Positions 16,683-44,661 of a stretch of DNA of 44,661 nt are shown in pieces; the stretch's first letter is position 1, and every line of letters begins with the position of its first letter. Made by a program: the position numbers and the translations under genes. The stretch lies in sequence record PP759150. One strand, 5' to 3'. The notes under the pieces were generated by a model, which was not told the DNA's origin, made no database searches, and saw only the letters and a program-made list of their open reading frames with translations. Source of the stretch: Escherichia phage HH3.

Positions 16683-17013
16683 TGGAGCGGGACAGGCGGG
16701 ACGTCCCGCTTTGTCCCGATCTGTCCCGCCCTCTAAAAACTGCATACCTATTCAGTTTTACTGCATAACCTGAAAGCGGGACGGCGGGACGTCCCGATCT
16801 GCCCCACCCCCCCAAAATGTGAATGGTTATGCAGTTTTCGTGCATAAAACAAACGGGACAAAAAGCGGGACAGAATGGGGCGGGACAAAGCGGGACGTCC
16901 CGCCGTCCCGCTCAGTGCTGCCGCGGGTTTCAGCCGATCGGGACAGGCGGGACAAAGCCCAGTCTTTCAGACTAGACGGGGGTCATTGGCCCCCCTCGTC
17001 TGAGACTGCATAA
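16683..17013. repeat. Repeat-dense non-coding element, copy A: about 17 CGGGAC(A) units in both orientations, three GCGGGACGTCCCGC palindromes, CTGCATAA repeats, terminal long hairpin (16960-17008)
   Basis: Read directly; last 187 bp (16827-17013) are a diverged copy of 44475-44661. Confidence 0.85.
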
Positions 17014-21881: not shown

Positions 21882-22486
21882 CCACCTTTAAATTATACGG
21901 CGTCTTAGGGCGTCGTTTTGGTAAAGTGCACAAGCTGGACTGCTTCACACCAGGCGAAGGCATCACCGGCCTGTGCGTGAAGTTACCAGGCTTACAGGAC
22001 TTTCTAATGTCGGCTCACCTGGAAAACATGATGTTCAAGGTGCGCAAGGGCAATCACACAATGACCGGTTACGACGAGTTGGGCGAGTTCCACGGTAACC
22101 GCGTAGTGACCATCGCGCCGGTTATGACTGGCGCAAAAAGAGGGCTAGGACAATTACTGGCGGGCGTAGCCATCGTGGTGGCATCATTCTACACTGGCGG
22201 GCTTGCTACTGCCGCTTTTGGTGCTTCAGCCGCGACCGCGGCTGCTATTGGTACGGCTACGTTTTCGTTCGGGATGTCGATGGCGCTGGGTGGCGTTATG
22301 CAATTGCTATCCCCGCAACCGAAAGGATTGCAGACACGGCAGGACGTGGACAACAAGGCGTCTTATGCGTTCGGCGGACCGGTAAACACGACCGCGCAAG
22401 GTACGGCACTTGGTGTATTATGGGGCGAGCGTGAGATCGGCGGCGCTATTATTTCCGCCGGAATCGTAACAGAGGATTTGAACTAA
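21872..22486 (+). CDS. tail assembly protein I-like (204 aa)
   Basis: Position before J; hydrophobic Gly/Ala-rich C-terminal half. Confidence 0.6.
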   Translation: MAMTTFKLYGVLGRRFGKVHKLDCFTPGEGITGLCVKLPGLQDFLMSAHLENMMFKVRKGNHTMTGYDELGEFHGNRVVTIAPVMTGAKRGLGQLLAGVAIVVASFYTGGLATAAFGASAATAAAIGTATFSFGMSMALGGVMQLLSPQPKGLQTRQDVDNKASYAFGGPVNTTAQGTALGVLWGEREIGGAIISAGIVTEDLN

Positions 22487-25400
22487 TGACGATTATCTAC
22501 GACGTCACGGGCCATAAAGGCGGCGGTGGTAAACAGCACACCCCGCAGGAAACTCCCGACAGCCTGCACTCGCAGGCTAAAGCCCGCATCTTGCTTGCAC
22601 TGGGTGAAGGTGAGTTCGAGGGGATCCCGAGCACCCGCGAATTACGGCAGCGCGTATATTTGGACGGAACGCCGATCCAGAACGCCGACCGGTCCGAAAA
22701 CTTCCCCGGCGCGCGCGTGGAGTTCCGCCCAGGCACACAGCATCAGGACGTGATTCACGGATTTTCCGCGGTGGAAAGCGAGCAAACAGTTGGTGTGAAA
22801 CTGGAATACGGCACGCCGTGGGTGCGCCAGATTAATGACACCAGTCTTGACGCCGTGCGCATTCGAATCGGTATTCCGGCTTTGTACACCAACAAAGACA
22901 ATGGCGACCTGGTGGGTGGGCGCATCGACTACAAAATTGTTGTGTACACCGACAACGCAAGTCCGCGCGAGTTCCGTTTCTCTGCCGTCGGCAAAACAAT
23001 GTCGCTGTACGAGCGAGACCACCGCATCGAGCTGCCATCGAACGTGAATACCGGCTGGCTCGTGGAGGTGCACCGCTTAACGGCAGATTCCACCTCTGCA
23101 AAAGTGGTTAACGATATCCGGGTACAATCCATTACAGAGATTATCGATGCCCGCCTGCGATATCCGCTAACCGCACTGTTGTTCGTGGAGTTCGACGCAA
23201 AGGCGTTCCAGAACATCCCGCGCGTATCCATTAAGTGCAAAGGACGAAAAGTTCTAATCCCGAACAACTACGACCCGATTAATCATACTTATTCTGGCGA
23301 CTGGGACGGGACGTTTAAACGCGCATGGACGGATAACCCGGCGTGGCACTGGTATGATATCTGTATTACGGAGCGCTTCGGCCTCGGTCGCCGGATAAAG
23401 CCGCAAATGCTAAACCGTTACGCGCTCTACCAGATTGCGCAGCGCTGCGATCAGATGGTAAGCGACGGAAACGGCGGACGGGAAATCCGCTTTAAGAATG
23501 ATATGTACATCCAGTCGCAGACCGACGCATGGACCGTGCTTAAGGATTTAGCAGCCATCTTTGCTGGTATGACCTGGTGGGGAAACCAGATGTTGAATAT
23601 CGTCAGTGACCAGCCGGTCGCAGCGGTATCGCACACTATCACCAACGCCTCGGTAATTGATGGGCGATTCGACTATGCGTCTGGCAGCCAGAAAACCCGG
23701 TATTCCACGTTCGCGGTAGCATACGGCAACCCGAAGAACCACTACGAGGACGCCATCGCAACGGGCCAGCGCGTCGAACTGGTGCGTCGCCATAAGATTA
23801 ACCGCCTCGATATTACGGCGATCGGCTGTACGCGTGAGTCTGAAGCGCAACGCCGTGGGCACTGGGCGCTAATCTCCAACCAACTCGACCAGCAAGTTAG
23901 CTTTAAGGTTGGCATGGAGGGACTTTTCTTTATTCCGGGTAGCGTAGTCGCTATCGCGGATACTAACATTTCCGGCGGCTTCGAGACCCGCGGCGGACGC
24001 CTGTTGTCAGATCCGGGCACGCGTACTGTGCTGAACACGGACAGCGAAATCACGTTCCGCCCTGGTGACAAATTCCTGGTGCGCACCGATAGCGGTAATG
24101 TGGAGACTCGCGAGATTGCCAGCGTCAACGGCAACAAGGTTATGCTGAAAAACGCACTGGATGCCGACCCGATTCCCGATCAACCGTTTTGCGTTGATGG
24201 CGATGATATCCAGTTGCAGAAGTTCCGCATCACCGACCTGGAATATGACGACGCTACCAGCACTTTCTCGGTGCGCGGGATTGAATACCACGACAGCAAA
24301 TATGATGCCGTTGATAATGGCGCGCGCCTTGATCCGGGCATCTTTACGCAAGTTCCCGACGGCGTAATTAAGGGGCCGGAATCCGTGACCATCACCCCGT
24401 CGCAGATCTCATCACAAGGCCAGCTAATCACCAACGTGGATATTGTTTTCCCTCCGGTGAAAGATGCCGTTGTGTACGAAATCCAGTGGCGGCGCACCAG
24501 CTTGCAGAATATGGAAATCCAGTGGGGTAACGACTGGGTGAATATCCCCCGCACGGCATCGAACGGCGCGCACATCCCTAACGTGTTCTCCGGCAACTAC
24601 CAGGCCCGCGTCCGCGCGATCGGTATGGGCGAGATTTCATCCCCGTGGGTGGAGTCTGCCATCACGCCGGTAGAAGGTCGTCTCGGCGGGCTTAACGCGC
24701 CTATCATCACCAACGCGATTTCTGGCCTCCACCAGATTTTGTGGAAGTGGAACCATAACAACGCCGCGACGGATATCTCTTACACCGAGCTTGAAGTGCG
24801 TAAGACCGGAGAGACGGAATGGAAATTTCTTACAAACGTCCCATACCCGGGGGCGGAGTATGCCCAAACGTCGCTGGAGTTCGGGATCTATCAGCAGTTG
24901 CGCGCCCGTGTAGCTGATAAAATCGGCAACCTGTCGGACTGGTCGGACCCGTTTGAAGGGCAGGTGAGTGACAAAGTTGACGAGTACATGAAGGGGCTTG
25001 ATGACGAGTTCTTGACTTCCGAGGATGGTAGACGCTTCCAGGAAGCGATCGACACCATGCCGCAGGGCATTTACGAGGCGATTCTCACCGACGCGCAGCA
25101 ATTATTTAACGCCCGCGCCGAGTACAAGGGTATTTATGCGGAAATCTCGGTGGCATATAACGTGGCGGCGGACGCCCACAAGGCTGTCGCTCAACTGGAG
25201 ACGTTGATCGGCACGCGACTCGACGATGCTGAAGCGGCGATCCACACGTTGCAGACGGCACAGAGTACGCAAGAACAAGCCTTCGCCCAGTATCAGCAAA
25301 CTGTTGCCGCTAAGTTCGCGGATCAGGAAGCTGCCATCCAGCAGGTACAAACGGCAACGGCGGACGTAGCTGGCGCGCTGGCGGAGTACAAAACCCAGGT

Positions 25401-26304
25401 CGCGGCACAGTTCGGTCAGCAGTCCGCCGCTATTGAGCAGAAGATGACGTCCTCGTTTAACCATGCGGGTGGTAACGCCACGTACAGCCTTAAGGCGGGC
25501 GTGACGTATAACGGGACCTACTATGACGCCGGTATGCAGCTTTCCGTCGTGGCGGAGGGTGGCGCGGTTAAATCCCGCATCGCGTTCAAAGCGGACCAGT
25601 TCTACATCATGCACCCGTCTAATGGGACGCTTTCGTCCGCGTTTATCGTGGATGGCGGGCAGGTGTATATCGACACGGCGCGCATTAAAGACGCATCTAT
25701 CAACTTTGCGCAGATCACGGACACGCTGCGGTCTGATGGCTTCTTAACAGGGTCACGCGGCTGGAACCTGCCTAAATCGGGTAATGCGGAGTTTAACAAC
25801 GCGACAGTCCGCGGCACCGTTTACGCGAGTGATGGTGTGTTTAAGGGCACGGTTTATGCAAGGGATGGGGTATTTACCGGAACGGTCGAAGCCACCAGCT
25901 TTGTCGGTGACGTTGCAAATATGTGTGTTATTGGTGCGAAAGCAATCCCAAACACAGACAGGAATGGGTCAAGGTCATGGTCGGTGACTTTCAACGACTC
26001 GTCCAGGTCATCGAAACTCAAAGACTTTGTGTTGCTGTTAAGTTACTCACTGGTCGGGCACACCGCAAGCCAGTCAAGTCGCATTGCTGTTACCGCCAAT
26101 ATTGGCGGTAAAGTAGTATCAAGGACTATTGAGCGAGCGGCAAGCGGAAACGCAATCCATACAACGATTCCTTTAGCTGCGGAAGGTGTAGCGGCGGGAA
26201 GTGTAACAATTAAAGTGACGGAAGTGTATACAAACGTCTACGGCAGCACATTGCACCCATCTGTAATATTAATGACTCGTGGAACTGGTAGCTGGTCGCA
26301 ATAA
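22486..26304 (+). CDS. host specificity / central tail fiber protein, lambda J-like (1272 aa)
   Basis: N-terminal GHKGGGGKQHTP and internal YSGDWDGTFKRAWTDNPAWHWYD...RCDQMVSDGNGGRE segments closely resemble lambda gpJ as I recall it. Confidence 0.9.
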   Translation: MTIIYDVTGHKGGGGKQHTPQETPDSLHSQAKARILLALGEGEFEGIPSTRELRQRVYLDGTPIQNADRSENFPGARVEFRPGTQHQDVIHGFSAVESEQTVGVKLEYGTPWVRQINDTSLDAVRIRIGIPALYTNKDNGDLVGGRIDYKIVVYTDNASPREFRFSAVGKTMSLYERDHRIELPSNVNTGWLVEVHRLTADSTSAKVVNDIRVQSITEIIDARLRYPLTALLFVEFDAKAFQNIPRVSIKCKGRKVLIPNNYDPINHTYSGDWDGTFKRAWTDNPAWHWYDICITERFGLGRRIKPQMLNRYALYQIAQRCDQMVSDGNGGREIRFKNDMYIQSQTDAWTVLKDLAAIFAGMTWWGNQMLNIVSDQPVAAVSHTITNASVIDGRFDYASGSQKTRYSTFAVAYGNPKNHYEDAIATGQRVELVRRHKINRLDITAIGCTRESEAQRRGHWALISNQLDQQVSFKVGMEGLFFIPGSVVAIADTNISGGFETRGGRLLSDPGTRTVLNTDSEITFRPGDKFLVRTDSGNVETREIASVNGNKVMLKNALDADPIPDQPFCVDGDDIQLQKFRITDLEYDDATSTFSVRGIEYHDSKYDAVDNGARLDPGIFTQVPDGVIKGPESVTITPSQISSQGQLITNVDIVFPPVKDAVVYEIQWRRTSLQNMEIQWGNDWVNIPRTASNGAHIPNVFSGNYQARVRAIGMGEISSPWVESAITPVEGRLGGLNAPIITNAISGLHQILWKWNHNNAATDISYTELEVRKTGETEWKFLTNVPYPGAEYAQTSLEFGIYQQLRARVADKIGNLSDWSDPFEGQVSDKVDEYMKGLDDEFLTSEDGRRFQEAIDTMPQGIYEAILTDAQQLFNARAEYKGIYAEISVAYNVAADAHKAVAQLETLIGTRLDDAEAAIHTLQTAQSTQEQAFAQYQQTVAAKFADQEAAIQQVQTATADVAGALAEYKTQVAAQFGQQSAAIEQKMTSSFNHAGGNATYSLKAGVTYNGTYYDAGMQLSVVAEGGAVKSRIAFKADQFYIMHPSNGTLSSAFIVDGGQVYIDTARIKDASINFAQITDTLRSDGFLTGSRGWNLPKSGNAEFNNATVRGTVYASDGVFKGTVYARDGVFTGTVEATSFVGDVANMCVIGAKAIPNTDRNGSRSWSVTFNDSSRSSKLKDFVLLLSYSLVGHTASQSSRIAVTANIGGKVVSRTIERAASGNAIHTTIPLAAEGVAAGSVTIKVTEVYTNVYGSTLHPSVILMTRGTGSWSQ

Positions 26305-35042: not shown

Positions 35043-35321
35043 TTAAGCGACCAATTCAGCAACCAATAAATCACAGTCGGCTATGTTGTCTATGACGCGA
35101 ACGTCCGCACCGCGGCGGGCCATTCGCTCATGTTCTCGTACCTGGTGCGGCTTCGGTTTGCCACCGGGGCGCTTCACCTCGACGAACACTATTCTGCCGT
35201 TGATGATGATTATCAGGTCTGGCGCACCTGCTCGCCCCTCCCACGCCACTTTGCGGCAGAATCCGCCGACGGCTTTCACCCGTCTCATCAAGTGACTTTG
35301 AATCTTGCCTTCGGGTGTCAT
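35043..35321 (-). CDS. VRR-NUC domain nuclease (92 aa)
   Basis: GAPDLIII ... VFVEVKRPGGKPKPHQ motif; start overlaps the Pol I stop. Confidence 0.7.
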   Translation of the reverse strand: MTPEGKIQSHLMRRVKAVGGFCRKVAWEGRAGAPDLIIIINGRIVFVEVKRPGGKPKPHQVREHERMARRGADVRVIDNIADCDLLVAELVA

Positions 35322-37612
35322 TATTTTCTGTACCTGTACATAATGTCGCCTTCCGCGGCAAGCGGGAAGCCTTTCGCCCAAACCGGCAGGTCGCACATCA
35401 GCGCGCACAACTCCTCAGTTGTGTAGTCGTCGGTATCCGGCACTTCGGTTATCAGTTCATCGTGTACGGACAGTACGATCTCATATCCCGCAGCTTCAAC
35501 GCCAGGCATGGACCATGCGAGGATATCGCGACACAGCGCCTGCACGATGTTCTCTGTCAGTTTGCCGCCGTAGGTGTACTGGGATCCCCACTGGCGCGTC
35601 GTCTGATTCTCACCCTGGTATTTAATGCGGGTGCTGGTGCGTTTCTTGCCGGTGTCGTCGTCGATCTCGGTCGTCACTGACAGCGCAATGCCTGGATAAC
35701 TCATAATACGCCCAGACGGCAACTCAATTTTCAACCACCACCCCGCGGCGTTCGGGTCGTCGCGTTCCTCGTCGAAGGTTGGGTCATGCTTCGCCTTCGT
35801 GCGGACTATCTTGAGCGCTTTCTTTCCATCCGGGCGAACGTTCGCTCCAGCCCAGTACGCTTTGCCCGGATTGCGGATTGCACACAACACCGCGTCCTCA
35901 AGCTCGGCCCAAAAAGCTACCGTCTTCGGGTGAGCCTCGCGCCACATGCGTTTAATCGCATCACACGTAAGCCATACGTTTTTCGGCAGTATGTAAGTCG
36001 GACGCTCGTCCTTCTTGCCCGGCTTCGGCGGGCGCTTAGCTTCGTTAATGCGGGCATACTCATAACCACGTTTCGCCGCGGCCCAAATGTGATCGGGGAA
36101 TGTGCCCTTCATCACGTCAGCCATCGCATAAAGGTCGAGGCCCAGGTTTTTAGCGAACTGCAAGAACGCCGCCACGCCGCCGCCATAGCCTAGTCCCAAC
36201 TCACACGCCTTACCGATCTGGCGTAAGTCTTTGCGGTTGGCTTTAATGTATTCCGGATCGAGGCCGAACATCTTACCGGCAGTCTCACAATAAATATCGC
36301 GACCGGCCCTAAACACCATTAGCGCGGTTTTCTCTCCAGCGATCCAGGCGAGGCCACGCCCTTCCACGTTGGAGTAGTCCGCCACGACAAACTTCTTACC
36401 CTTCGCCGGAATAATGCACCCGCGAACAGTCGAGGCTGTTAGCTTCGATATGTCATACGCCCAGTGCGCTGTCCCGCGTAACAGGGAGTTGATGCCGTTG
36501 GTGAGCATGTGCGACCGGACCCAAAAAGAAACGTCGCTCTCGCCTTCACGGCGTTTAATCTTCCCTTCGTGGTCATCACTATACTCGCCGCGTGCCAGGT
36601 TTTGCGGCTGGAAGCCTTTACCAGCCCAGCGCAGCGTGCGCTTTGCCCCACCATACTGAAGACAACCACGGCGGCGACCATCGGAAGACAGGCCATTTAC
36701 GAGCGGATTGTACTTAGTCGATGCCGTTGATGATGCCCCGAGGCGCATCTCGATAAGCACTTTGCCTTCGTCTGGGAAGTCCGGGTCTTCCAGCAGGTCG
36801 TTAAGTGTGGACTTCTGCGCGTTGTGGATCGTGAACGCAGGCGCGAGGTCGCGCAGCGCGGGCAAGAAGTCATTGCCGGTCAGCTTACCGCCGAAGCGCT
36901 CCCAGGCTTCTTCCTTCAATTCTTCTTTATGCGCCTGTACCGCTTTGATCGCGGCGTTCGCCAGATCAACGTCCACGTAGAAGCCGCGGTCGTTGATCAA
37001 CTGGTCAATAAGCAGGATTTCGTCTTCCTTCGGCGTGTTGCCCCAGTCCGGTATGCGCCAATAGACTTCCCTCATAGCGATGATATCCAACGCGGCATAG
37101 CGAAGGAATTTAGCCCACTCCTCTGGGTGCGTCTCGCGCGTGTAGCGGCGGATTTTGTAGGTCTTAGGGGTAGGCTTACAGAATCGTTTGATCAGCGCCT
37201 TGCCCGCCTTATCCTTCGCGTGCTCTGCATCAACGCCCAACACCTGACACTGCATATCGAGGCCGCCCGGCAACGCGTGCCGAAAGGCCATAATCATGGT
37301 GTCTTCGATCTGGCACACGGGGAGGTCAATGCCCCACTTCTCGCGAATAACCAGGCGGTCAAACAGGAGGCCGTTAGCCATCACGATTTTTGCTTTCTTG
37401 CGGGATACCCGGCGGAGCGCCTTGCGCAGTTCACGCGGCATTGTGGGGGACTCGGTGCAATCCCACGTTTGCACGCGGCCCTCGTCGATGGCGTATGTGC
37501 AAATCATAATCTCAGTAGTTGGGTGTTCCGCGTAGGCGTATGCGCCCACTTTCTTCAGATCCACCCCGCTAAATGTCTCGGTATCGAGAAACAGGCGTTC
37601 AAAGTCTTTCAT
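35321..37612 (-). CDS. DNA polymerase I (family A) with 3'-5' exonuclease domain, 763 aa
   Basis: Exo I motif FLDTET near N-terminus; C-terminal motif C region SVHDELI; size. Confidence 0.9.
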   Translation of the reverse strand: MKDFERLFLDTETFSGVDLKKVGAYAYAEHPTTEIMICTYAIDEGRVQTWDCTESPTMPRELRKALRRVSRKKAKIVMANGLLFDRLVIREKWGIDLPVCQIEDTMIMAFRHALPGGLDMQCQVLGVDAEHAKDKAGKALIKRFCKPTPKTYKIRRYTRETHPEEWAKFLRYAALDIIAMREVYWRIPDWGNTPKEDEILLIDQLINDRGFYVDVDLANAAIKAVQAHKEELKEEAWERFGGKLTGNDFLPALRDLAPAFTIHNAQKSTLNDLLEDPDFPDEGKVLIEMRLGASSTASTKYNPLVNGLSSDGRRRGCLQYGGAKRTLRWAGKGFQPQNLARGEYSDDHEGKIKRREGESDVSFWVRSHMLTNGINSLLRGTAHWAYDISKLTASTVRGCIIPAKGKKFVVADYSNVEGRGLAWIAGEKTALMVFRAGRDIYCETAGKMFGLDPEYIKANRKDLRQIGKACELGLGYGGGVAAFLQFAKNLGLDLYAMADVMKGTFPDHIWAAAKRGYEYARINEAKRPPKPGKKDERPTYILPKNVWLTCDAIKRMWREAHPKTVAFWAELEDAVLCAIRNPGKAYWAGANVRPDGKKALKIVRTKAKHDPTFDEERDDPNAAGWWLKIELPSGRIMSYPGIALSVTTEIDDDTGKKRTSTRIKYQGENQTTRQWGSQYTYGGKLTENIVQALCRDILAWSMPGVEAAGYEIVLSVHDELITEVPDTDDYTTEELCALMCDLPVWAKGFPLAAEGDIMYRYRK

Positions 37613-37795: not shown

Positions 37796-37817
37796 AAAAA
37801 GCCCGCATTAAGCGGGC
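37796..37817 (-). terminator. rho-independent terminator (minus strand)
   Basis: gcccgc-attaa-gcgggc with TTTTT on the minus strand. Confidence 0.65.
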
Positions 37818-37837
37818 TTGAATAGTGGGCTTTGCCC

Positions 37838-38626
37838 TTAACGGCGACGTTTACGCGGTGCTTTGTCTTCGTCGTCGTCGTCGTCGTCGTCGTCGTCCTC
37901 ATCTTCGTCATCGCGTGGCTTACGACGTTTGCGAGGTGTTTCATCATCGTCGTCATCGCGGCGCTTGGACTTTTTGGACTTGCGCGGCTTGTCGTCTTCA
38001 TCATCGTCATCGCGACGTTTTGACTTTTTGGACTTGCGCGGGCTTTCATCTTCGTCATCGTCGCCCAGGTCCTCGTCCGAGCAAGAAGACCCGCCACCGC
38101 CGAAGGCTTCACCGTCATCACGGAAGCGTAACCCCAGCAAGCCCGCACCGAGTCCCTTGCCGTTGGTATTGTTCCACGCCCAAATATCCAGGGACACGTT
38201 GCAATAACAACCGGAGTAGATCTCCTGGCCTTCAATCTCGTCGCCTTCTACGGTCAGACCCTGTTCGGTCTGCTTCTCGCCGAGTGACGTTTGAATGATC
38301 GGCTGTTTGAACGATTTGGCGTTGATGTACAACATGCCTTCGAATTCTTCGGTTACTTCGTCGCGCTCGTCACCGTCGCGAACTGCGCATTCCTTAGAAT
38401 CCTGGGCGTAGTGGCGGTCCATCCACTTATCAGCATTCTTCTCGGATTTCAGCTTGTCGGTGAGCACTGCGCGCGCTGCCGCTTCCACTTTGTCCACCTG
38501 CGGATCTTCTTTATCAAGAAGAATCACTGCACGGTATGCCGGTTTTTGTCCATCCTGTTTAGGGGTATCGCGCTCCCAAATTTTAAGGAAACATACGCGC
38601 ACATTTTTCAGGTTGACTTTAGCCAT
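37838..38626 (-). CDS. putative ssDNA-binding protein (gp2.5-like / DUF2815-like) with C-terminal poly-Asp and Lys/Arg-rich tandem repeats
   Basis: N-terminus MAKVNLKNVRVCF; position between Cas4-like nuclease and Pol I (a module order I recall as common in phages); start at ATG 38626 with RBS gaggaa. Confidence 0.5.
   Translation of the reverse strand: MAKVNLKNVRVCFLKIWERDTPKQDGQKPAYRAVILLDKEDPQVDKVEAAARAVLTDKLKSEKNADKWMDRHYAQDSKECAVRDGDERDEVTEEFEGMLYINAKSFKQPIIQTSLGEKQTEQGLTVEGDEIEGQEIYSGCYCNVSLDIWAWNNTNGKGLGAGLLGLRFRDDGEAFGGGGSSCSDEDLGDDDEDESPRKSKKSKRRDDDDEDDKPRKSKKSKRRDDDDDETPRKRRKPRDDEDEDDDDDDDDDEDKAPRKRRR
37857..38070. repeat. In-frame tandem repeat (about 57-bp unit x2 plus GAC/GTC triplet run) inside the SSB-like gene
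   Basis: cgtcgtcgtcgtc run and duplicated ...gactttttggacttgcgcgg... unit. Confidence 0.7.
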
Positions 38627-38716
38627 TTTCCAATTCCTCATTCTCGCATGTATCGGGGTTATTATGAGCCACCCCGTTCGGCTTGGTTGCTAATCTACTT
38701 GGTTGCGCCTGGGTGG

Positions 38717-38959
38717 TCAAGCATTTTCATTAAAAAGATTTCGGGTCACGTAGTTGGTGGCGTTCTCGACCCAGCTTAGCGGCGGGCGTTCGATGTTCTT
38801 TTCCACCCAATAGACGGCAGCTTCGCTATAGCCGTCGTCCAGCCAGCGGGTCGGGTGGCGAATCATCCAGGCCACCATTAACACGCCTTGCACACAATGC
38901 AGGATAAAGCCCAGTGCGCCGAGCAAAAACATCAATAAGATTGCGAATACTTTATTCAT
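38717..38959 (-). CDS. small membrane protein (80 aa)
   Basis: Two hydrophobic segments FAILLMFLLGALGFIL and VLMVAWMI. Confidence 0.5.
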   Translation of the reverse strand: MNKVFAILLMFLLGALGFILHCVQGVLMVAWMIRHPTRWLDDGYSEAAVYWVEKNIERPPLSWVENATNYVTRNLFNENA

Positions 38960-40382
38960 TGCTTAAGTCCTCGTCTGTAGCTTCCGACCACGCAGGGCGC
39001 GGGTCGTCGATTGGTGCTAACACAGGTTTAGCGGGTGCGCGTGTGATTTTAGCACACAGCTTCGCCCACACTTTCGGTTTTTCGTCCTTCAGCACCTTCT
39101 CGGCATCTGTCGGGCTGAGCAATGTTTCTTTGTACATCACATCGCGCTTGATCCGGGCCTTCGTGAATATTTCAATCACTTCGCTCTCGTCCGCCCACTT
39201 ACGGATCCCTTCCTTACCGGCAACCATCTTAAGGCCCAACGATTCGCCATCGCCCGCCATGACCGCCTTGAATACCGCGGATTCGATAGCTTTGATGTGC
39301 TGGCGCATTGCGTCAAGTCCTTCATAAGCCTTGCGCAGTTCCGCCGCGCTCATAGCGCCTGGGGTGGATTCCTTCTTGCCCCGTTTAGCACGTCGGGCAG
39401 CCTTCCGGGCTTCGCGGGCCATATTGCGGTCGTGGTTGGCGCACTCTTCCTCGGTTGCCACGCTCACGTCGTCGCCCAGGTCTTCGTCGGTTGCCGTTGG
39501 TGGCGTCATCGTGTCGATTGCGGCCTTCGCCCGGATGCTGCACTGGTCCGCAAATCTGCACCACTGGCACGCATCGACGCTGGGCCGGAAGTCGGCGCGG
39601 GTTAGTCCCTTCTTGCCGCGGGCGTATGCATCGAGCGCGGCGATAGCACGCTTGGACGCAAACGTCGCGAATATCTCCAGCGCTTCCACTGAGATATCCC
39701 ACTCTGACGCCCCGCCGCAATACGGCTGGAAGATGACCAGGCGCACGGTCGTAATGTCATACATGGTTTGCAGCTTGCGCAGCAGTCCGAGCGCGTACAA
39801 CATAAGCTGTTTGTTTTCTTTCGCCTCGACCTTATGCCGCCCGGTCTTCAGGTCGCCAACAATCAGCATGTACGTGCCATCGGTCTTCTTCGTGACCATG
39901 ACCATATCGGCAGTGCCGAACGTCTTAACCTTGTTACCGTCGATCTCGACTCCTGGGTGGAGGACGCGGGTGAGATCGGCGCGCATCTCAAGCTGGACAA
40001 ACTCCGCCACTTCGAGGAGCGGTCGCCAGTGGTCGATGTACGCGTCGCACTGTTTCACCATATCGTCGTTGACCAGTACGCCGCCTTTCGGTGCTTTCGG
40101 GTGCGCCTTTACTGGCCCCTTGCCTTCATTCTCGACGTAACACCCTTTATACGTCTTTGCTGTTATCAGCTTTTCACCGGCGATAATGCGGTTTAGCACC
40201 ACTTCAGATACGGTGTGCATACTCGTACCATTAATCGCGGCCTGTCCTGATTCGTTCGGGATATCTTTTTCGACCACCAGGGCGGCGGGACACCCCATCC
40301 ATTTTTTAGCACCGGATGGGCCAAGTAATGAGTGTTCCGTATTGCTACCGGATTGCGTTTTACGTTTTGGTTTAATCGCCAT
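38952..40382 (-). CDS. PD-(D/E)xK exonuclease, Cas4/RecB-like (DUF2800-like), 476 aa
   Basis: N-terminal HSLLGPSGAKKWMGCP signature; C-terminal Cys cluster CQWCRFADQC. Confidence 0.65.
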   Translation of the reverse strand: MAIKPKRKTQSGSNTEHSLLGPSGAKKWMGCPAALVVEKDIPNESGQAAINGTSMHTVSEVVLNRIIAGEKLITAKTYKGCYVENEGKGPVKAHPKAPKGGVLVNDDMVKQCDAYIDHWRPLLEVAEFVQLEMRADLTRVLHPGVEIDGNKVKTFGTADMVMVTKKTDGTYMLIVGDLKTGRHKVEAKENKQLMLYALGLLRKLQTMYDITTVRLVIFQPYCGGASEWDISVEALEIFATFASKRAIAALDAYARGKKGLTRADFRPSVDACQWCRFADQCSIRAKAAIDTMTPPTATDEDLGDDVSVATEEECANHDRNMAREARKAARRAKRGKKESTPGAMSAAELRKAYEGLDAMRQHIKAIESAVFKAVMAGDGESLGLKMVAGKEGIRKWADESEVIEIFTKARIKRDVMYKETLLSPTDAEKVLKDEKPKVWAKLCAKITRAPAKPVLAPIDDPRPAWSEATDEDLSNE

Positions 40383-40870: not shown

Positions 40871-41386
40871 TTAGTCTTCCAGTTCGAAATAGGTTTCTAC
40901 GATTTCTTTAAGTTCTGTGTGGAAGTCCGCCACGTCGTCGTCTTCCAGTTTAGCGATTGATTTGATCTCGAACGATTCCAGCAGGTCGTCGAATTCGTCG
41001 TTCGCATCGTCATCATCACCGCCTGCGATAATCGCGGCATACTGTTTGATCTCGTCGCGCATCTCCGCCAGCGGATCGGCATCTTTCTCACCTTTGCCTT
41101 TCGCTGGTGCTTTTTTACCCTTCGCCGGTTTTTCGTCTTCGGCGTCATCCTCGTCGTCATCATCCTCTACGACTTCTTTTTTGGCCTTACCTTTCGCCGG
41201 GGCTTTTTTGGTTTTCGCTGGTGCTTCGTCTTCAGCGTCGTCATCTTCTACGACTTCTTTTTTGGCCTTAGACGGCTTTTTATCTTCCTGCTTACCAACG
41301 GCAGCGCCAACGGTTTCATAATGTTTAGCGATGATTTCCAGTGCTACTACGCCGCGAGTGATCAGGTTTACGATTTGCTCAAACAT
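40871..41386 (-). CDS. highly acidic early protein with tandem mixed-charge repeats (171 aa), candidate DNA mimic
   Basis: Start ATG 41386 with RBS ggag; repeats EVVEDDDAEDE...PAKGKAKK; first gene downstream of the leftward early promoter. Confidence 0.55.
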   Translation of the reverse strand: MFEQIVNLITRGVVALEIIAKHYETVGAAVGKQEDKKPSKAKKEVVEDDDAEDEAPAKTKKAPAKGKAKKEVVEDDDDEDDAEDEKPAKGKKAPAKGKGEKDADPLAEMRDEIKQYAAIIAGGDDDDANDEFDDLLESFEIKSIAKLEDDDVADFHTELKEIVETYFELED

Positions 41387-41789
41387 GGTATATCTCCGAT
41401 TGGTTAAGTTTAGGTGTCGACAGTTAACTTCGTCGGTGGCCTTAACATAGTGCCTGGTTGCGCGTTCTCCCTTTCGGGTAGTGGACCAGGTTATATAATC
41501 ACGGTTGGGAATCCTGACACTTCGATCCGGCCCCTGCGTTGCCCCTCTCCAGTTTGCGTCCTGCATCCTGTCGACGGGGTGAATAATAGATTGGTTGCAG
41601 GATAGGTGTCAACAACTAATTTCAAAAAAAAAAGCGCCGAAGCAAAATGCGACGGCGCTAACCAATAAGAGACAATGAGACGGGAGTATTATTACACGCG
41701 TGCGCGCCCGTTTCAATATCCCAAAGGATTTGACACCTTGCGGTTTTAGGTGTAGTTTCGTTGGTCATTAACCAACTGGGGGCAGAGCA
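41387..41789. promoter_or_regulatory. Divergent early control region: leftward promoter (TTGACA at 41612-41607, TATTAT at 41589-41584, 9-mer in the spacer), rightward promoter (TTGACA 41730-41735, TAGTTT 41753-41758), GTCGAC-containing inverted repeats
   Basis: Hexamers read directly; region separates divergently transcribed replication genes. Confidence 0.5.
41623..41659 (-). terminator. rho-independent terminator on the minus strand inside the control region
   Basis: agcgccg-13 nt loop-cggcgct followed by ten T on the minus strand. Confidence 0.6.
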
Positions 41790-44474: not shown

Positions 44475-44661
44475 TTATGCAATAAAACTGCATAAAGTAG
44501 GCGGGACAAAAAGCGGGACAGACCAGGGGCGGGACAAAGCGGGACAGCACCCCGTCCCGCCCCGGATGACGCGGCCTGGAGAGGAGCGGGACAGCGGGAC
44601 AGCACCCCAGTCTTTCAGACTAGACGGGGGTCAACGGCCCCCCTCGTCTGAGACTGCATAA
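44475..44661. repeat. Repeat element copy B: six or more CGGGACA units plus terminal hairpin (44608-44656) ending in CTGCATAA at the window edge
   Basis: Aligns with 16827-17013 over 187 bp; hairpin arms identical and only the loop differs by two bases. Confidence 0.85.

Follow-up and report, generated by a model that had tools for sequence, protein, structure and literature searches.

The SSB encoded in the window, the whole 44,661-nucleotide stretch of DNA analysed here, ends in a tail of three layers: a conserved acidic-hydrophobic segment, a variable charge-balanced array and a conserved Arg-rich tip. We infer that this tail of a gp2.5-like SSB is probably a charge-balanced disordered linker, resized by slippage or recombination, that doubles as a module for electrostatic interactions. 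The source genome is that of a Dhillonvirus, an HK578-like E. coli siphophage. The gene and the parts of its product are as follows:

37838..38626, minus strand: SSB gene of the Enc34/T7 gp2.5 type, 262 aa plus stop (open reading frame, PF10991, phrog_112)
38099..38626, minus strand: predicted OB-fold ssDNA-binding domain, aa 1-176 (AlphaFold2 and Foldseek)
38042..38098, minus strand: Gly/Ser hinge and conserved acidic-hydrophobic motif GGGSSCSDEDLGDDDEDES, aa 177-195 (alignment, conservation)
37988..38041, minus strand: mixed-charge unit 1, PRKSKKSKRRDDDDEDDK (PRKSKKSKRR DDDDEDDK), aa 196-213, 18 aa (Tandem Repeats Finder period of 54, repeat comparison)
37937..37987, minus strand: mixed-charge unit 2, PRKSKKSKRRDDDDDET (PRKSKKSKRR DDDDDET), aa 214-230, 17 aa (peptide identity to unit 1)
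37859..37936, minus strand: mixed-charge unit 3, diverged, PRKRRKPR followed by DDEDEDDDDDDDDDEDKA, aa 231-256, 26 aa (protein layout)
37841..37858, minus strand: Arg-rich C-terminal tip PRKRRR, aa 257-262 (conservation among Dhillonvirus genes)

Judged by its sequence and predicted fold, the protein is an SSB of the PF10991/T7 gp2.5 type. It matched the PF10991 (Enc34_ssDNA-bd) profile over aa 3-193 (E = 4.2e-31; 108.4 bits against a cut-off of 26) and the phrog_112 'Gp2.5-like' family (E = 6.5e-51), and a sequence search of the PDB returned 4klk, 4jg2, 5odj and 1je5 as relatives, all of which agrees with the SSB-type replication protein of the initial annotation. The AlphaFold2 model had a pLDDT above 90 over aa 1-170, and its top Foldseek matches were 4klk, 5odl, 5odj, 4jg2 and 1je5 (E = 8e-12 to 5e-6); T7 gp2.5 was recovered as a structural homologue with E = 3e-6 at an identity of just 11-13%. 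The aromatic residue that stacks against bases where strand beta4 begins (Trp150 in Enc34, Tyr158 in T7) appears to have a counterpart in the window SSB: in a comparison based only on alignment, W149 and W151 lay at most one position from Enc34 Trp150 and fell onto two Tyr residues of the DUF2815 protein 4klk. The bacterial SSB class (PF00436) was rejected, since no PF00436 match was obtained at E <= 0.01 and the tip is basic, not acidic-hydrophobic; E. coli SSB structures gave E > 1 in Foldseek with the window model. The start codon at 38626 has GAGGA just before it, and an alternative ATG at 38641 would add 5 aa.

The tail takes up the last 83 of 262 residues (32%), the C-terminal third in which the repeat had been placed. 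It runs from the acidic motif SDEDLGDDDEDE through three units that each join a PRK-rich basic block to an Asp/Glu block (18, 17 and 26 aa, with net charges of +1, +1 and -9) to the basic tip, and thus holds four basic blocks and three full units. Units 1 and 2 are identical over their first 14 residues, with codons that differ at four sites, all synonymous; this near-identical pair is what had been reported as two in-frame copies, and the diverged third unit had been missed. Unit 3 contains exactly nine consecutive Asp (aa 244-252), encoded by a pure (GAC)9 at 37871-37897. The repeat had been described as ending in this Asp run, which is indeed present, but the basic end of the protein had gone unnoticed. 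The encoding tandem repeat is plain at the DNA level: Tandem Repeats Finder placed 2.2 copies of a 54-nt period at 37944-38062, with 87% matches and a score of 180, and also listed a (GTC)n/(GAC)n run at 37865-37913, and a DNA repeat comparison placed 37941-37994 against 37995-38048 with 83% identity. The DNA at the unit 3 boundary was 61-73% similar to the other unit boundaries, and unit-boundary DNA resembles the DNA of the terminal module.

This arrangement is more than an expanded acidic tail. An acidic segment does follow the OB fold directly: in the alignment with Enc34 ORF6, which extends to query aa 194, SDEDLGDDDEDE (aa 185-196) is matched to the acidic C-terminus, and on this alignment the hinge and motif (aa 177-195) are the counterpart of the canonical acidic SSB tail. 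The array, however, extends beyond that segment and leads to an Arg-rich tip instead of the acidic-hydrophobic one of T7 gp2.5 and most family members.

The tail repeat is far above chance expectation. The longest exactly repeated tail peptide was 14 aa, against a maximum of 10 (mode 4) in 5000 composition-preserving shuffles, and the charge segregation delta of 0.444 was greater than in all 5000 shuffles (mean 0.095, sd 0.034). With 78% charged residues (FCR 0.78), an NCPR of -0.13 and a kappa-like value of 0.62, the tail fits the descriptive class of blocky polyampholytes, or mixed-charge disordered regions, by its charge segregation and predicted disorder. The whole tail, acidic segment included, is predicted to be disordered: AlphaFold2 gave a pLDDT of 45-52 and no secondary structure over aa 175-262, and there was no confident contact between tail and OB fold in the model. 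An ER/K single alpha-helix was rejected, as the model has no helix in this region, a Pro opens each unit and the acidic blocks are Asp-rich.

Homologue tails were compared from GenBank phage records, which was more useful than an IMG/VR locus search, in which at least seven loci were confirmed and two of the six patterns were low-complexity tail peptides. The suggestion that copy number could vary between isolates was borne out. Among 17 Dhillonvirus SSB genes with intact frames, the number of internal units ranged from 0 (phage welsh) through 1 (EP23) and 2 (HK578, JL1, Envy and CHD5UKE2) to 3, the number in the window and in most of the other genes compared, and these differing SSBs come from phages that are otherwise about 90-95% identical. 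Several length classes were present in 40 sampled Dhillonvirus records, and in all 40 the offset in length from the query was a multiple of 3, in frame. At least five types of unit junction were found among the compared Dhillonviruses, and resizing events have therefore been recurrent; MZ234008 and MZ234014 carry an independent exact duplication, APRKAKKSKRRDDDDEDE twice over. The nine-Asp run is specific to the window isolate, the longest such run in the other 16 intact genes being 6. Both flanks of the array are conserved: an SD[ED]DL core with an acidic run after it was kept in 17/17 genes, and the terminal 12 aa, DEDEAPRKRRRR, were invariant in 16/17 despite synonymous differences, the window having DEDKAPRKRRR.

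For the wider family, a full-protein word-indexed homologue search was biased towards similar tails because its index used tail words, and it was therefore replaced by an exhaustive HMMER search with the OB domain only. A basic block was missing from 121 of about 140 classifiable top representatives, most of which ended in an acidic stretch plus F, L, I or V; a short acidic tail capped by a hydrophobic tip is all that most members of the family have. On these comparisons the mixed-charge array is a derived, minority elaboration. Arrays nevertheless recur, with 1 to about 12 units, where the OB folds are 30-60% identical, and a DDF.DL-type motif related to the acidic motif of the window occurs family-wide. 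Net tail charge stays roughly constant, near -8 to -10, as the tail lengthens (medians of -6 to -14, while median tail length rises from 30 to 157 aa). In its own branch, Dhillonvirus and the Guernseyvirinae-related phages, the basic/acidic design is the rule, and a minimal form, the acidic motif and Arg tip with no internal units, is found in Jerseyvirus and Kagunavirus, which have related tips (APRRERRRR). The array had been called unusual, and this holds against the family at large but not within that branch. The acidic-hydrophobic C-terminal tip is absent from the window SSB, which ends in ...APRKRRR; since such a tip is typical of the family rather than defining, PF10991 membership stands. 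Tip-mediated partner binding of the window SSB cannot be assumed.

Enc34 ORF6 (Enterobacter/Hafnia phage; PF10991/DUF2815; PDB 5ODJ, 5ODK and 5ODL) belongs to the same Pfam family and has the same OB-fold variant as the window SSB, and in both an unstructured acidic segment comes directly after the fold. The Enc34 tail, which has 16 acidic residues among its last 29 and ends in ...WDEDEV (translated from the cloning primer), sits in the groove of an adjacent molecule, and once this tail is removed dsDNA can be bound (PMC5686142). The window SSB, in contrast, runs about 67 residues past this type of acidic tail, through the basic/acidic units to PRKRRR. T7 gp2.5 is both an SSB and an annealing protein, with an acidic tail that both competes with ssDNA and brings in polymerase and helicase (PMC10359462); the tails of gp2.5 and Enc34 ORF6 are both described as occupying the DNA-binding groove, excluding dsDNA and recruiting polymerase and helicase (PMC5686142, PMC10359462). 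That the tails of gp2.5 and gp4 share a binding site goes back to Hamdan et al. 2005, a reference given in PMC10359462. The gp2.5 tail is purely acidic, whereas that of the window SSB is interspersed with basic blocks and is basic at its terminus. In T7 the tail ends in an essential Phe.

E. coli SSB has an OB fold, a disordered linker of variable length and a conserved terminal peptide, as does the window SSB. Its linker, rich in Gly, Gln and Pro, carries almost no charge, and it has an acidic-hydrophobic tip (DDDIPF), while the window SSB is of a different fold family, with a highly charged linker and a basic tip. The E. coli linker tunes cooperativity and condensation (PMC7584906, PMC12143593). 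Mixed-charge tails of phage SSBs were not described in the literature searched. Disordered regions built of K/R and D/E blocks are known elsewhere, in eukaryotic Arg-rich mixed-charge domains, nucleolar acidic/basic repeat proteins and the C-terminal domain of alpha-proteobacterial RNase E, where they promote multivalent electrostatic self-association. The window tail has no homology to the eukaryotic and RNase E regions, and the likeness is one of composition and pattern only.

The SSBs of the Dhillonvirus phages SECphi4, SECphi6 and SECphi18 are orthologues of the window SSB, and the gene of SECphi18 encodes the three-unit tail as well. The SECphi SSB activates Retron-Eco8, the SECphi4 orthologue behaves as an SSB-type retron trigger, and the modelling in that work covered residues 1-186, leaving out the flexible tail (bioRxiv 10.1101/2022.08.27.505566). 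Two candidate expression signals flank the gene in the window:

37796..37819, minus strand: intrinsic terminator-like hairpin just after the SSB stop, AAGCCCGC-UUAAU-GCGGGCUU plus a U run
38692..38720, minus strand: sigma-70 promoter-like site upstream of the SSB gene, TTGACC-17-TAGATT (consensus match only, 9/12)

When folded directly, the hairpin had an energy of -18.5 kcal/mol (z = -6.6), and phages PTXU06 and WFI carry a 'terminator' annotation at the corresponding position; a consensus terminator scan did not list it. An RpoD promoter is annotated at the place equivalent to the upstream site in Jerseyvirus AG11, and the 'promoter' of the SSB gene in SECphi phages is a reported site of Retron-Eco8 escaper mutations (bioRxiv 10.1101/2022.08.27.505566).

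We propose that replication slippage or unequal recombination between units of about 54 nt gave rise to the array and continues to change its size. By their appearance, the units may be duplicates of a terminal module consisting of an acidic stretch and a PRK-rich tip, and the (GAC)9 run may be a recent triplet expansion in the window isolate. The array would then act as a length-adjustable, self-neutralising linker. In the free protein, basic blocks would pair with the adjacent acidic blocks and so would not drive indiscriminate DNA binding. Once the SSB is on ssDNA the tail would be released, and the freed basic blocks and tip could make contact with DNA, or with acidic segments on adjacent SSBs and on partner proteins. 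Such contacts would tune cooperativity, annealing and partner recruitment, and the exact number of units would not be critical. Viable phages with zero units exist (welsh, and the genera Jerseyvirus and Kagunavirus), so basic SSB function does not require the array.

The array could also be close to neutral: a slippage-prone, low-complexity insertion that is tolerated as long as it is in frame and charge-balanced, with no role other than tethering the Arg-rich tip. This is possible, if on the whole rather unlikely. Such filler would sit well with the variation from 0 to 3 units among closely similar viable phages, with whole genera that have zero units, with the restriction of the (GAC)9 run to the window isolate and with the lack of any array in most of the family. 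It accounts less well for arrays that persist or recur across lineages with only about 30% OB-fold identity and different unit sequences, for the roughly constant net tail charge and for the in-frame lengths of all 40 sampled variants. Synonymous change also exceeds nonsynonymous change in the basic blocks, with 0.20 against 0.075 differences per codon in basic block 1, although these are crude counts, not site-normalised, in low-complexity sequence.

More elaborate roles were considered. The acidic 'DEDL' peptide, the array and the Arg-rich tip might constitute a hitherto undescribed electrostatic interaction code of the replisome, by which the SSB, a DUF2800 nuclease and a phrog_3127 protein co-assemble, for example in a cooperative SSB-ssDNA coat or condensate, with unit number tuning the strength. 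The adjacent DUF2800 nuclease, encoded at 38952-40382, bears acidic-hydrophobic peptides that match the SSB motif and has the C-terminal peptide TDEDLSNE, and the phrog_3127 protein of the same operon is a second copy-variable mixed-charge repeat protein; the DNA polymerase is encoded at 35321-37612. We regard this scheme as a speculative and unlikely one. If true, it would make this SSB a hub of reversed polarity, with a basic tip, compared with all studied SSBs. Somewhat more doubtful still is that a multivalent SSB array drives the coalescence of SSB-coated ssDNA and acidic or mixed-charge replication proteins into a compartment or filament. The high charge blockiness of the tail and the related segments in those two neighbouring replication-module proteins would suit such a driver, but gp2.5-type SSBs are monomers or dimers, not tetramers, which lowers the valency, and phages with zero units replicate.

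Two further explanations are very improbable. In the first, the 54-nt direct repeats would be iterons or an origin within a replication gene, as with the lambda ori in gene O, and the peptide a by-product. The repeats are indeed tandem and lie in a replication-module gene; an iteron-type origin was rejected because copies vary from 0 to 3 with differing junctions between isolates, and diverge synonymously with the peptide kept. Distant relatives preserve the charge pattern with unrelated DNA, and the turning points of the cumulative GC skew, at about 29 kb and about 41 kb, do not coincide with 38 kb. In the second, the repeats would be mis-assembled, or the true product would lie in another frame, through an overlapping gene or programmed frameshift. 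The three-unit layout also occurs in UHP65, PS2, SECphi18, CHD2B1, SO-1 and IMG/VR contigs, and since these many genomes were assembled independently the layout is most unlikely to stem from misassembly. Across the repeat several further frames are open, and the OB fold is fused to a shifted frame in MZ234008, MZ234014 and the metagenome protein P0007. MZ234008 and MZ234014, however, keep an intact normal-frame tail downstream, including PRKRRRR and the stop, which points to sequencing or assembly errors rather than programmed frameshifting. Alternative frames and the antisense strand were rejected as composition artefacts, as their ORFs had no PHROG family match, and synonymous variation is not lowered in the tail (0.20 per codon against 0.16 in the OB fold), as dual coding would lead one to expect.

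SSB tails are organising hubs of replication and repair, and in every well-studied case (E. coli SSB, T4 gp32, T7 gp2.5 and Enc34 ORF6) the tail is acidic, usually with an acidic-hydrophobic tip. Here, an Arg-rich SSB end is found in a large group of cultured enterobacterial phages, comprising about 154 Dhillonvirus records and, in minimal form, Jerseyvirus and Kagunavirus, and many phages of this group insert a variable number of basic/acidic units ahead of the tip. Should the array modulate cooperativity, annealing or partner recruitment, these phages would provide a natural allelic series of 0, 1, 2 and 3 units for the effects of tail length and charge on a replisome. If it is neutral, they would provide a clean case of low-complexity growth driven by slippage and checked by frame and charge balance. 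As the SSB is the trigger of Retron-Eco8 in SECphi4 and SECphi18, variation in the tail could also matter for defence sensing.

The initial annotation had called the product of the gene at 37838-38626 (-) an SSB-like replication protein, and this was correct. The 262-aa product scored 108 bits against PF10991 (Enc34 ssDNA-binding protein, formerly DUF2815; cut-off 26) and also matched phrog_112, 'Gp2.5-like ssDNA binding and annealing protein'. PDB sequence matches, to the DUF2815 proteins 4klk and 4jg2 and to Enc34 ORF6 (5odj, 5odk), were confined to residues ~3-194. In an AlphaFold2 model using 63 homologues, residues 1-170 had pLDDT >90, and Foldseek with this model again returned the solved DUF2815/Enc34 structures, together with T7 gp2.5 (1je5). 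In the alignment, W149 and W151 fall where Enc34 and its relatives are described as having a base-stacking aromatic residue. On the strength of the family, PHROG and structure matches and these aromatic residues, the protein is placed with the PF10991/gp2.5-type SSBs.

The OB fold is followed by an 83-aa tail (32% of the protein), which is 78% charged, with a net charge of -11 and a kappa-like charge-segregation measure of 0.62. At the DNA level, Tandem Repeats Finder placed a repeat with a period of 54 nt in 37944-38062, with 2.2 copies and 87% matches, and a run of triplets in 37865-37913; another repeat search of the window paired two 54-nt copies that are 83% identical. Translation of the tail gives GGGGSSCSDEDLGDDDEDES / PRKSKKSKRRDDDDEDDK / PRKSKKSKRRDDDDDET / PRKRRKPRDDEDEDDDDDDDDDEDKA / PRKRRR (stop), that is, three units of a PRK-rich basic block and an Asp/Glu block (U1, U2 and U3; 18, 17 and 26 aa) and a terminal basic block, with nine consecutive Asp encoded by a pure (GAC)9. 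The earlier description, two ~19-aa copies and then nine Asp, captured U1, U2 and the acidic half of U3, and missed the third unit as such and the basic end. With these corrections the repeat was borne out by Tandem Repeats Finder, by translation and by 5000 composition-preserving shuffles, whose longest exact repeated peptide was at most 10 aa, against 14 aa in the tail, and all of which had less segregation of positive and negative charge. U1 and U2 differ at four of their first fourteen codons, all synonymously. DNA at the unit boundaries in the window is 61-73% similar to the terminal 'acidic end + PRK' junction, which is consistent with an origin of the array by duplication of that terminal module. 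AlphaFold2 gave residues 175-262 a pLDDT of 45-52 and no secondary structure, and the tail is predicted to be a disordered blocky polyampholyte. A single helix of the ER/K type is argued against by the Pro that opens each unit and the Asp-rich acidic halves, as well as by the absence of predicted secondary structure.

Next to the SSB gene of the window we set those of 16 related genomes (17 genes). The predicted variation in copy number between isolates was found: phage welsh (202 aa) has no internal unit, its acidic motif being fused directly to PRKRRRR; EP23 has one; HK578, JL1, Envy, CHD5UKE2 and one IMG/VR contig have two; and all remaining genes have three. The three-unit layout recurs in UHP65, PS2, SECphi18, CHD2B1, SO-1, LM40P1 and four IMG/VR contigs, and since these phages were sequenced independently the architecture is real. 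Tail length thus changes by whole or partial units. The junctions vary among two-unit forms (U1+U3, U1+U2/3 fusions) and MZ234008 and MZ234014 carry an independent exact duplication of U1, so gains and losses of units are recurrent. Over 40 Dhillonvirus matches, taken as a spread sample, a 381-nt query spanned 201-382 nt, and all length differences were multiples of three.

The tail has a conserved element at each end, an acidic-hydrophobic motif on the OB-fold side and an Arg-rich tip. All 17 genes keep the SD[ED]DL core and acidic run that adjoin the OB fold, and 16 of them end in the same twelve residues, DEDEAPRKRRRR, although their codons differ synonymously. The exception is the window itself (37841-37876, -), where DEDKAPRKRRR has one Arg fewer and a Glu to Lys change. 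Its (GAC)9 is also the longest Asp run (<=6 in the other 16 genes), and within the three-unit architecture only this exact length is unique to the isolate. By crude counts across genomes, basic block 1 has 0.20 synonymous vs 0.075 nonsynonymous differences per codon, and the OB fold 0.16 vs 0.029. Copy-number variation is therefore constrained, with frame and both end motifs preserved. Phages with no unit occur naturally, so unit number is not critical; they also leave some room for a near-neutral array, a reading that we consider unlikely. A role of the repeats as iterons or an origin at the DNA level fails, given that copy number varies between isolates, that the copies diverge synonymously and that the turning points of GC skew lie near 29 and 41 kb.

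Alternative frames across the repeat are open solely because GAY, GAR, AAR and CGN codons rarely yield stops, and these ORFs had no PHROG family match. MZ234008 (2-nt insertion) and MZ234014 (another indel) have a shifted tail frame, annotated as an MTKMK...-type tail, as does one metagenome protein. Downstream of the indel, the two phage records keep the normal-frame tail whole, and the shift in the low-complexity repeat is thus probably an error of sequencing or assembly.

When the whole protein was searched through a word index, 120 homologues were found, with mixed-charge tails (1 to 12 basic blocks) in 104 of 116 classifiable. Such a search is biased by tail words, and frequencies were taken from an exhaustive HMMER search limited to the OB domain, which gave 2198 relatives among 1.84 billion representatives. 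No basic block was present in 121 of about 140 classifiable top matches; their tails are short and acidic, contain a DDF.DL-type motif and in most cases end in a hydrophobic residue. On this proportion the array is a derived, minority elaboration. 'Unusual', as the tail had been called, holds among OB-domain relatives, but the tail is typical of its own clade. Cultured phages display a plausible series from plain acidic tail to Arg tip to units.

Tail types among relatives
Xylella Xfas53, a Vibrio phage: plain acidic tail
Jerseyvirus, Kagunavirus: acidic motif and Arg-rich tip (DDLEDDEDEAPRRERRRR), no internal unit
Hafnia TS33, Salmonella sp9, Dhillonviruses: one to three internal units
Metagenomic relatives: up to about 12 units, in some cases with a DDDDVV-type tip retained

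With approximate tail boundaries, median net tail charge remained within the range -6 to -14 as median tail length grew from 30 to 157 aa; being this steady, it indicates that added units are roughly charge-balanced.

The window is an essentially complete genome (44.7 kb) of a Dhillonvirus, an HK578-like E. coli siphophage. A 1.5-kb query around the repeat matched 154 phage records with identities of 80-95%; almost all are Escherichia/Shigella Dhillonviruses. OQ221563.1 (Acinetobacter phage NJ01), MG065648.1 (Campylobacter phage A144) and OQ291023.1 (Salmonella phage Kenya-K19) are ~85-93% identical to this E. coli Dhillonvirus in the tested regions, which may reflect mistaken host labels or contaminant records. 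Tandem Repeats Finder also reported GC-rich 8-10-nt units containing GCGGGAC/GTCCCGC at 16703-16911 and again at 44585-44603, and a 33-nt repeat (2.3 copies, 25812-25886) inside a 1272-aa ORF (22486-26304). The SSB gene sits within a leftward replication operon.

Replication operon and predicted signals
40871-41386 (-): phrog_3127 protein
38952-40382 (-): DUF2800/PD-(D/E)XK nuclease, adjoining the SSB gene
Between nuclease and SSB gene: 80-aa protein
38692-38720 (-): sigma-70-like site upstream of the SSB gene
37838-38626 (-): SSB gene, Enc34/gp2.5-type
37796-37819 (-): hairpin and U run 3' of the SSB gene (-18.5 kcal/mol, z -6.6)
Between SSB gene and DNA polymerase: 56-aa protein
35321-37612: family A DNA polymerase
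Beyond the DNA polymerase: SNF2-type helicase

The strong hairpin falls just ahead of the small gene and DNA polymerase, and the SSB gene, flanked by it and the sigma-70-like site, appears to be its own transcription unit.

The nuclease carries acidic-hydrophobic peptides, ATDEDLGDD in an internal linker (aa ~298-306) and EATDEDLSNE at its C-terminus, both similar to SDEDLGDD, the SSB motif that follows the OB fold. The nuclease C-terminus, which comes after a conserved DDKRP.W/Y, is similar to the SSB motif of its own phage in nine phage pairs (for example DFQDLS vs DFEDLS in Xfas53). This suggests a docking peptide shared by nuclease and SSB, and recalls T7, where one loop of the polymerase is bound by the tails of both helicase and SSB (Hamdan 2005, as cited in PMC10359462). 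The phrog_3127 protein, starting at M61 of ORF 40871-41566, has a second mixed-charge tandem repeat (two units, KKEVVEDDD..EDE.PAK.KKAPAKGK) and then an acidic C-terminal part with DEFDDLLESF. Its gene varies by about one unit between Dhillonviruses (454-457 vs 541 nt), and in phage welsh a repeat_region is annotated there. These resemblances hint at an electrostatic interaction scheme shared across the replication module, an idea to which we give little credence.

T7 gp2.5 and Enc34 ORF6 both have an acidic tail that lies in the groove for DNA (PMC5686142, PMC10359462); removal of the tail permits dsDNA binding in Enc34 (PMC5686142), and in T7 it recruits polymerase and helicase (PMC10359462). 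Cooperativity and condensation of E. coli SSB are tuned by its variable disordered linker (PMC7584906, PMC12143593). Enc34 ORF6 has a short acidic tail only, according to its paper (PMC5686142), whereas the SSB of the window adds the array and basic tip. SSBs of SECphi4/6/18, orthologues of this protein, were identified as the Retron-Eco8 trigger in a study that depicted residues 1-186 without the flexible tail (bioRxiv 10.1101/2022.08.27.505566). A full-text search of the DUF2815 literature returned no title or abstract about mixed-charge repeat tails, and a literature search for such tails in phage SSBs found nothing. The array and basic tip form a variation on SSB tails that is new and, in the literature searched, undescribed. 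The earlier interpretation, an SSB with variable copy number, was largely right, but the feature is clade-typical and no lone oddity.

We propose that SDEDLGDDDEDE would perform the classical acidic-tail role, while the array would be a length-adjustable, self-neutralising linker. In the free protein, basic blocks would be masked in cis by the adjoining acidic blocks. On ssDNA, the freed basic blocks could contact DNA, or acidic segments of neighbouring SSBs or partners, and these contacts may tune cooperativity, annealing and recruitment, with the Arg-rich tip a putative distinct, conserved contact element.
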